Assembly: GCA_024673055.1 (NCBI GenBank)
Contig: GCA_024673055.1_4537.1
Source of the DNA: a phage
DNA length: 64,000 nucleotides
Direction: 5' to 3' (one strand)
Shown: positions 7,445 to 8,853 of the stretch, piece by piece
How positions within the stretch are numbered: the stretch's first letter is position 1
Layout of the letters: every line of letters begins with the position of its first letter
The notes under the pieces: generated by a model
What the model saw: the letters and a program-made list of their open reading frames with translations, nothing else
What the model was told of the DNA's origin: nothing
The model's database searches: none
Made by a program: the position numbers and the translations under genes

Positions 7445-7473
7445 TTGACTTGCGGGATTAGTTATGATATTAT
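7445..7473 (+). promoter_or_regulatory. sigma70-like early promoter (TTGACT-17-TATTAT)
   Basis: -35 TTGACT 7445-7450, 17-nt spacer, -10 TATTAT 7468-7473. Confidence 0.5.
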
Positions 7474-7502
7474 GCCTACCTACTTAATGAGGTAGGCTTT
7501 TT
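7474..7502 (+). terminator. stem-loop with U-tract overlapping promoter
   Basis: GCCTACC...GGTAGGC stem followed by TTTTT, directly after the -10 element. Confidence 0.45.
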
Positions 7503-7512
7503 AGGAGGCGTT

Positions 7513-7722
7513 ATGAAAAAGATTCTGACAGTCGTTCTTTTAGCTTTTAGTTTCACAGTAGCAGCAGGTCAAATTACTTTAATCTTGTCTGATTCTGAAG
7601 TTAATGGCAACACAAAATATTGCTACTATTCTAACGCTAACCAAGATGAAGTTATAGCAATCCCGAAAAGTCGTCAATGTCCGTATACTAAAACATTCTC
7701 AACAGAGGATGACGATGAATAA
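7513..7722 (+). CDS. small secreted protein (signal peptide)
   Basis: MKKILTVVLLAFSFTVAAG N-terminal signal-like sequence; AGGAGG SD. Confidence 0.5.
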   Translation: MKKILTVVLLAFSFTVAAGQITLILSDSEVNGNTKYCYYSNANQDEVIAIPKSRQCPYTKTFSTEDDDE

Positions 7723-8163
7723 TTAGGGGGAAATATTAGCGGTTATATTTTAATTAAACCTGAAGATCTTCATTTATATGTCAACGAAGAAACAATAGCT
7801 GCAATTGATTATGATCAGATCGCTTTCCAAGCAGCGTCTGCATTAGAGAAAAGAACAATCATTGCGAAGCACATCCCTTCAGGTGCTCAAAAGGAATTTA
7901 AAAATAAGACAGAGTTTTGGGGTAAAAGTAAGACTAAAATTGGAGGTTGGCTAGGAGATACAAATGCAGAAAGAGCCTCCAAAAACAAACGTCCCTTCAC
8001 AAAGGAAGAGTTCGAAATTATTGATAAGCAATACCCGCCAGAAGATATCGGACACACCTTCCAAGCAGCTAAAACAAAAGTCTTAGGTATTCTAAAACAT
8101 CTACGTTTAGAAAAATATTGCGGAGTTATTGGCGTAGGAAAAACTTTCAGACACGCCTTCAAA

Positions 8164-8853
8164 ATGCCTGTAGAATATAAGTCTGAACGATTAGATATCA
8201 AACCACTTCAGCTTTCAGAAACCAAAGATTATCTTGTGGAGTTCCACAATGGTGATGTTGTTACTGTAATAGAGGCTGACGATGAGTTAGAGAAGTATGG
8301 TTTCCAAGGTTATAAAGATTATAAAAGGACGGGTAAATTTTCTTATATCGTAGTGTCTATAGATAAAGATAGTTTACATACTCCTAGTATCCTTTTTAAT
8401 TTCTACAAAGAGGATGGAGTATTTAAAAATCCAGATATAATTCTTATTGACGAGTCTATTGGCGACATATGGATCGTAGATAAAGGTAAAAAGAAAGAAG
8501 TTAAAGGTTGGGGAAGTTATTGGTTAGCCTATCAGATGCTAATGGGAGATAAAACAGATAGTATCCGACCTTATCAAGATTTTGATATTAAGTTCGGAGA
8601 TATTACTTGTTTTAATCTTCTTTCAGCTTGTAAAACTCAAGCAGAACTTTTCCAAACAGTTAAAGATACTTACTACTCGTGGTTCCCAGATGGTGTTAAT
8701 TTTACTTCTTGGGATGGAGAAGAAGTCCATATGACAACAGATGAATGGATAGAAACAATTTTCCAGTTGGTATACATGAAACGCTGGGATAATGACGATA
8801 CAACATTTGAGAGTATGCTTCAGTCATACATCTCACAACAGGAGGCAGAGTGA
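8164..8853 (+). CDS. hypothetical protein; 5' end uncertain (open frame continues upstream to 7723 without ATG/GTG/TTG)
   Basis: Track ORF; ATG 8164 lacks SD; same frame stays open for 147 codons upstream. Confidence 0.45.
   Translation: MPVEYKSERLDIKPLQLSETKDYLVEFHNGDVVTVIEADDELEKYGFQGYKDYKRTGKFSYIVVSIDKDSLHTPSILFNFYKEDGVFKNPDIILIDESIGDIWIVDKGKKKEVKGWGSYWLAYQMLMGDKTDSIRPYQDFDIKFGDITCFNLLSACKTQAELFQTVKDTYYSWFPDGVNFTSWDGEEVHMTTDEWIETIFQLVYMKRWDNDDTTFESMLQSYISQQEAE

Follow-up and report, generated by a model that had tools for sequence, protein, structure and literature searches.

Where does a gene begin when its reading frame lacks every usual start codon? This question is raised by a locus in a contig of phage DNA which we analyzed as one window, i.e., the whole stretch of 64,000 nucleotides. 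The frame of an ORF at positions 8164 to 8853 is open from 7723 onward, directly behind the TAA stop (7720-7722) of the preceding ORF. The 147 codons in between (7723-8163) contain no stop and no in-frame ATG, GTG or TTG. They contain ATT codons in frame at 7735, 7747, and 7753, and a GGGGGA motif is located at 7726-7731. A first, sequence-only reading had pointed out the long frame without canonical start, its in-frame relation to the TAA, the G-rich motif, and the improbability of such a stretch by chance; re-reading the DNA agrees on each point. At the composition of the window (39% G+C) the probability that 147 random codons are free of stops is 5e-5. Three explanations had been offered: initiation at a non-canonical codon, for example ATT 7735, stop-codon read-through or recoding, or an uncorrected sequence error. 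All features described here are located on the plus strand.

The codon usage of the stretch, singled out by the sequence-only reading as a check, is gene-like with 0.29 bits/codon vs. 0.34 in the rest of the gene. All remaining long start-less leaders of the window have a codon-usage score of 0 or below. Substitutions between the window and phage phi92 in codons 2-143 are distributed 42:29:82 by codon position; these counts were used instead of an NG86 dN/dS ratio, which is unusable for the N-terminal part of this comparison because dS is saturated. A tblastn search with the 372-aa translation from ATT 7735 retrieved 1233 phage records, of which 901 have a query coverage of 80% or more. With matches extending over residues 1 to about 370, the identity is 78% for phi92, about 42% for Certrevirus and PVP-SE1-like phages, 37% for rV5-like phages, and about 30% for ICP1 and PAK_P5-like phages. 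The upstream 143 codons are kept as protein down to 25-30% identity. The homologues align from residue 1, counted from ATT 7735, and not from the equivalent of 8164, the outcome which the sequence-only reading had named as speaking against its own view.

Judged from homology and structure prediction, positions 7735-8853 constitute a single gene which codes for a 372-residue 5'-3' exonuclease of the flap endonuclease (FEN) family and terminates with TGA at 8851-8853; the start-less stretch encodes its N-terminal half. The translation matches PHROG 107 ('exonuclease') with E=1e-55 across residues 10-367. Pfam returned no match at E<0.01 for either the full-length or the truncated product, and therefore PHROGs, AlphaFold2, and Foldseek served to assign the fold. 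Records of distant homologues of the exonuclease do list PF02739, and a PDB profile match to a 5'-3' exonuclease is weak (E=0.055). AlphaFold2, supplied with an alignment of 60 sequences, predicts the 372 aa with a pLDDT of 96.4 over the whole chain and places four strands ahead of Met144 (residues 16-25, 39-46, 93-100, and 127-137). Foldseek relates the model to the T5 D15 FEN and E. coli ExoIX with probabilities of 0.98-1.0 and E-values of 4e-5 to 1e-3.

Several acidic residues are candidates for the catalytic site. Two aspartates of the leader stand out: across alignments of 11 and of 60 sequences D25 never varies and D27 almost never. The residues invariant in all 60 sequences are D25, E180, D182, D183, D210, D212, D272, and D275. 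The ExD, DxD, and DxxD pairs E180/D182, D210/D212, and D272/D275 resemble in their spacing the metal-binding carboxylates of T5 FEN, to which, judging by this spacing, they may correspond. According to alignment and model, a start at Met144 would eliminate the catalytic-type aspartate D25, also D27, and the four strands, i.e., half of the predicted core sheet. We compared the protein with a family comprising T5 D15 FEN, E. coli ExoIX, the 5' nuclease domain of Pol I, and T7 gp6-like phage exonucleases. Its predicted fold is like that of T5 D15 FEN and ExoIX (TM to target about 0.6). It differs in that it exceeds T5 FEN or ExoIX by about 80-100 residues, carries insertions, and shares 10-13% identity with solved structures. 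By this model the enzyme belongs to the FEN/5'-3' exonuclease fold family, as a divergent member of increased size.

Which codon, then, initiates this protein? The proposed initiation codon, ATT at 7735-7737, is preceded at a distance of 4 nt by the Shine-Dalgarno sequence (SD) AGGGGG (7725-7730), which equals AGGAGG with one G.U wobble. Its duplex with the tail of the 16S rRNA (anti-SD) has an energy of -9.3 kcal/mol vs. a median of -9.1 for 47 long genes of the window. The same arrangement with a 4-nt spacing is found in both neighboring genes, AGGAGG-CGTT-ATG at 7513 and AGGAGG-CAGA-GTG at 8850, and relatives carry GGAGG or GAGGA at the SD position. Measured from the last G, this gap of 4 nt is shorter than usual in E. 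coli, though common to the neighbor genes. The G-run of the SD (7726-7730) consists of five or six G among 99%-identical Phapecoctavirus isolates (L003, L189, and L191), a variation which is tolerated in the 12-nt spacer.

The start codon was then viewed across homologues from about 190 loci in viral contigs, metagenome contigs, and GenBank. For each distinct homologue all in-frame ATG, GTG, TTG, ATT, ATC, ATA, and CTG codons upstream of D25 were ranked solely by their SD duplex energy. One site, 21-27 codons before D25, stands out in each homologue with an identity of 37% or more. At identities of at least 50% the codon with the best SD is ATT, ATC, ATA or CTG in 22 out of 22 distinct homologues, and never a canonical one; in this non-canonical group the top site is positioned 23-25 codons before D25. 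The SD energies at this site range from -7.3 to -12.9 kcal/mol, and the runner-up has -6.1 or weaker. Below 50% identity the codon is TTG (rV5-like phages and L185), GTG (PVP-SE1/SSE121-like phages) or ATG (Certrevirus and others). At the level of single nucleotides 'ATG GGT TAT CC' of Certrevirus aligns with 'ATC GGT TAC AT' and 'ATT AGC GGT TAT AT'. The alignment of homologue starts, the SD spacing shared with the neighbors, and the codons of the relatives agree with non-canonical initiation as proposed by the sequence-only reading, and we conclude that translation very probably starts at ATT 7735.

In a neighbor-joining tree the non-canonical group forms a single clade with a TTG-starting sister, and within it the four codons have interchanged several times. 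Based on these sequences, the lineage has kept a non-canonical codon down to about 50% protein identity. Taken alone, the three Ile codons ATT, ATC, and ATA together with the Leu codon CTG would equally fit an internal sense codon; this reading is excluded solely because relatives carry in-frame stops and frame shifts upstream. Further, third positions are saturated, with moderately related members of the clade differing at about half of them, and yet the absence of ATG throughout the clade is by itself no proof of selection against ATG, because G is rare at third positions and independent lineages are few. The data do reject the usual selection for an efficient start. A two-step change from ATA to CTG in L015, passing through ATG with subsequent reversion to a weak codon, was considered as an argument for selection and abandoned: third positions differ by 51% between L111 and L015, first positions by 11%, and such a path is not improbable enough. 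Outside of the clade the orthologues in rV5-like phages (L006, L033), PVP-SE1/SSE121-like phages (L118, L152), and L185 mostly use TTG or GTG and not ATG. Weak initiation of this nuclease may thus have been preferred already before the clade starting with ATH (i.e., ATT, ATC or ATA) arose.

The genes around the exonuclease bear on how ribosomes reach the ATT. Upstream, an ORF of 69 aa (7513-7722) with an N-terminal signal-peptide-like segment belongs to PHROG 4641 (function unknown) and ends 12 nt before the ATT. Most of the clade has this ORF conserved in front of the exonuclease gene, and the phi92 record assigns a SignalP signal peptide to its homologue. A consensus scan identified a sigma-70-like promoter at 7445-7473 (TTGACT, 17 nt, TATTAT, with TG before the second hexamer; 10 of 12 matches). 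Transcription of the small ORF, the exonuclease gene, and the genes behind it probably begins at this predicted promoter. A terminator-like hairpin with T-run occupies 7474-7502 (8-bp stem with 5 GC pairs, followed by TTTTT), and the promoter ends exactly where the hairpin (7474-7497 plus T-run) begins. By this layout transcripts from the promoter would start inside the 5' arm and escape the hairpin, and read-through from the upstream RdgC-like gene would be terminated. Downstream, a DnaQ/RNase H-like exonuclease gene (PF13482; 8850-9809; SD -10.3) starts with a GTG which overlaps the stop codon of the FEN-type gene. The overlap of TGA and GTG reads GTGA at 8850-8853 and is preceded by AGGAGG, an arrangement which suggests coupled translation of the two nuclease genes.

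Does such coupling also operate at the ATT? Ribosomes which finish the 69-aa ORF might stay on the mRNA, where the SD would retain them for a second initiation at the near-cognate ATT. The output of nuclease would then be a fixed small fraction of the translation of the upstream ORF and would not depend on de novo binding of 30S subunits. This would refine initiation at ATT 7735 and not replace it. It is favored by the upstream stop, which in all members of the clade precedes the start by 8-15 nt and often overlaps the SD (TAGGAGG), even in L182 where a methyltransferase gene replaces the small ORF, and by the whole unit apparently being under one promoter. On the other hand, genes in this genome are tightly spaced as a rule, and so are homologues with ATG starts, i.e., the spacing is not specific to a weak codon. 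Further, the SD is of full strength and usable by de novo initiation, and in E. coli accurate re-initiation is also subject to IF3 (PMC2268962). On balance we doubt that the ATT is served mainly in this manner. A major contribution of coupling to initiation is at present a tentative idea, held with less than even confidence.

Initiation a few codons downstream, at the in-frame near-cognates ATT 7747 or ATT 7753, or at several such codons, appears quite unlikely. Comparable ATT/ATA codons do recur at codons 5 and 7 in relatives. The SD energy for both codons is, however, -2.4 kcal/mol, far from the -9.3 calculated for ATT 7735, the conserved SD is 16-22 nt away from them, and the ATG of homologues aligns to 7735 and to neither of the two.

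Yet the prevalent annotation differs from ATT 7735, since most GenBank/RefSeq records start the gene at the equivalent of ATG 8164-8166, the internal Met144 codon. Accordingly, the protein would have 229 aa and 7723-8163 would be untranslated or a decayed remnant. ATG 8164 is indeed the first canonical start. As already noted in the sequence-only reading it has no SD (duplex energy +0.4 kcal/mol) and it is not a credible start. Moreover, a remnant would hardly be stop-free over 147 codons, retain protein conservation including an invariant D25, and supply half of a confidently predicted FEN fold. We consider this annotation as exceedingly unlikely to be correct.

With phAPEC8-like E. coli myophages (genus Phapecoctavirus) the region shares 99-99.9% identity, and the window itself belongs to a phage of this type. 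We inspected the annotations in 10 GenBank/RefSeq records and found the gene truncated in nine. Five Phapecoctavirus records (phAPEC8, ETEC-TG, anhysbys, EF1-1, and ESCO25) start at the equivalent of ATG 8164 (229 aa). The phi92 record starts at an internal GTG with the remark 'No RBS identified; weak Prodigal statistics', and that of Antha likewise at an internal GTG. The phiWec181 record uses an internal TTG. In the PATM record the region is in pieces, one of them on the wrong strand. ESCO13 alone (KX552041.2, AQM50955.1) annotates the CDS from the equivalent of ATT 7735, with a ribosome-binding site 3 nt upstream. This entry concerns the same gene and the same ATT, and does so solely as a database annotation; the ESCO13 genome announcement makes no mention of an ATT start. 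The phAPEC8 and ETEC-TG records contain, in addition, small spurious ORFs inside the upstream stretch. These out-of-frame ORFs (7862-7954 and 7964-8086) are listed as 'hypothetical proteins' and are by-products of the truncation of the real gene.

An observation apart concerns host labels. MG065650.1, MG065639.1, MH252123.1, OR584014.1, and others are designated as phages of Campylobacter, Klebsiella, Acinetobacter, Pseudomonas, Serratia or Salmonella. In this region these records are 99+% identical to E. coli Phapecoctavirus or have the junction of Justusliebigvirus (phi92-type); OR584014.1 shares its junction with phiWec181. Either these phages may infect a wide range of hosts, or the host names given in such records may not be trustworthy.

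The second option of the sequence-only reading was stop-codon read-through or recoding. In a wider form, the exonuclease would be an extension of the upstream ORF or fused to it, owing to read-through at TAA 7720-7722, to frameshifting or to a reassigned stop. In the window both frames do coincide, and a public gene call, P0005, reports a fusion of 444 aa. However, the frame offset of the upstream ORF is 0 or 2 among relatives (2 in phi92 and L009), and the indel between five and six G in the spacer of 99%-identical isolates alters the frame, leaving the ATT and everything downstream unchanged. In L104, L105, L107, and L013 the sequence TAGGAGGAGTAA is followed immediately by ATC, which places a TAA directly before the ATC. 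Five relatives, with either TAGGAGGAGTAA or TAGGAGGATTAA immediately ahead of ATC, have two stops after the upstream ORF, TAG and then an in-frame TAA. A signal peptide fused to a DNA nuclease also makes no functional sense. The P0005 fusion is an artifact of the gene caller, as the underlying DNA has a plain TAG. It is by accident that the exonuclease frame is in register with the upstream stop in the window; therefore read-through or recoding fails as an explanation and is hardly conceivable.

P0005 (L181, a Logan SRR30397360 contig) could be taken for a natural loss of the upstream stop. This reading is rejected: the TAG is present and was read as Gln under an alternative code. Evidently, the start-less open frame pushed the gene caller to this alternative genetic code.

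The third option, a sequencing or assembly error which replaced a true ATG or hides the real start by a frameshift, has nothing in its favor beyond the oddity itself and can practically be dismissed, as the 60-nt junction recurs in 127 GenBank phage genomes, 54 of which match it with an identity of 99% or more, and in many independent metagenome contigs, and divergent relatives have other non-canonical codons at the same place.

Initiation at ATT 7735 being the preferred reading, we asked how singular it is. A scan of the 64-kb window for other long start-less leaders with coding-like usage found none besides the exonuclease gene, and a scan for SD-preceded ATH or CTG codons upstream of a poor first canonical start found no second gene. 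Thus, at least in this window, the phage makes no general use of such starts. Further, codons 2-143 (7738-8163) are free of ATG, GTG, and TTG, which has a probability of about 3.5e-4 under the codon usage of the window; among 39 other long genes the maximum for a run of this kind is 117 codons. Selection against internal starts was considered as a cause and rejected, because relatives do not keep this property. It is probably due to chance, plus the manner in which the finding was noticed. Folding of the RNA from 7690-7790 yielded no significant structure (z = -0.96), and for this reason no structural RNA switch is claimed.

As to mechanism, the AGGGGG SD, 4 nt upstream, would place the 30S subunit at ATT 7735, the initiator tRNA would pair with the near-cognate AUU, and the protein would begin with fMet. 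The initiator tRNA reads AUU, AUC, AUA, and CUG as near-cognates. A tRNA scan of the window found none, and the mixture of AUH and CUG fits near-cognate reading by the ordinary tRNAfMet better than reading by a special tRNA. Most simply, a weak codon behind a normal SD would hold a potentially harmful nuclease at a low dose, and ribosomes which terminate at the upstream ORF, 12 nt away, may assist initiation by restarting at the ATT. We infer a low amount of nuclease because AUU-class codons initiate far below AUG in E. coli and IF3 discriminates against them. In E. coli non-canonical codons yield about 0.01-2% of the output of AUG (Hecht et al., bioRxiv 10.1101/063800), and raised IF3 inhibits initiation at such codons (PMC2268962). 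Non-canonical start codons are disfavored under competition and nutrient limitation (PMC5499595). The phage lineage would have kept its start weak. Whether it was maintained in order to limit dosage is, in our judgment, evenly balanced.

A search of the literature retrieved no specific description of this start codon, and neither proteomic nor ribosome-profiling data on phages of this group. Known already are non-canonical initiation as a phenomenon and the ATT start in one database record; hence no new mechanism is proposed. What appears undescribed in searchable papers is the conservation throughout a clade with turnover of the codon, and the scale of mis-annotation. A clade of large E. coli/enterobacterial phages (22 distinct sequences) seems to keep a non-canonical start on one enzyme gene, swapping ATT, ATC, ATA, and CTG. 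This offers a compact natural system for studying how a weak start, a strong SD, and coupling to an upstream ORF set the dose of a protein, and whether IF3 takes part. In practical terms, phages with this gene are under development for therapy and biocontrol, and most of their public genomes carry it with a wrong annotation. Usually the 'exonuclease' is truncated to 229-344 aa or small ORFs are listed which are spurious, and one public metagenome protein set contains a false recoded fusion. Standard gene callers will make such errors again.

Confirmed natural starts of the AUU class are very few; in E. coli they are limited to infC, which codes for IF3, and pcnB (Hecht et al., bioRxiv 10.1101/063800). 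The comparison with these two genes is the closest at hand. One may go beyond a passive throttle and view the conserved AUH/CUG start as a switch which senses IF3, a phage counterpart of infC regulation. Synthesis of the nuclease would then rise only when initiation fidelity drops during infection, e.g., at a lower ratio of IF3 to ribosomes or after translation of the upstream ORF, and a potentially genome-damaging FEN would be timed to the phase of replication or recombination. We consider such a switch improbable. Unlike infC, the phage gene codes for a nuclease and not for a translation factor, and has no obvious autoregulatory loop. Also unlike infC and pcnB, its start codon drifts within the clade among ATT, ATC, ATA, and CTG. 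What it shares with both is the architecture, a normal SD followed by an AUU-class start, and the retention of a non-canonical start across relatives, i.e., it is not a one-off. By analogy with infC and pcnB, low output and sensitivity to IF3 would be expected for the phage exonuclease, too.
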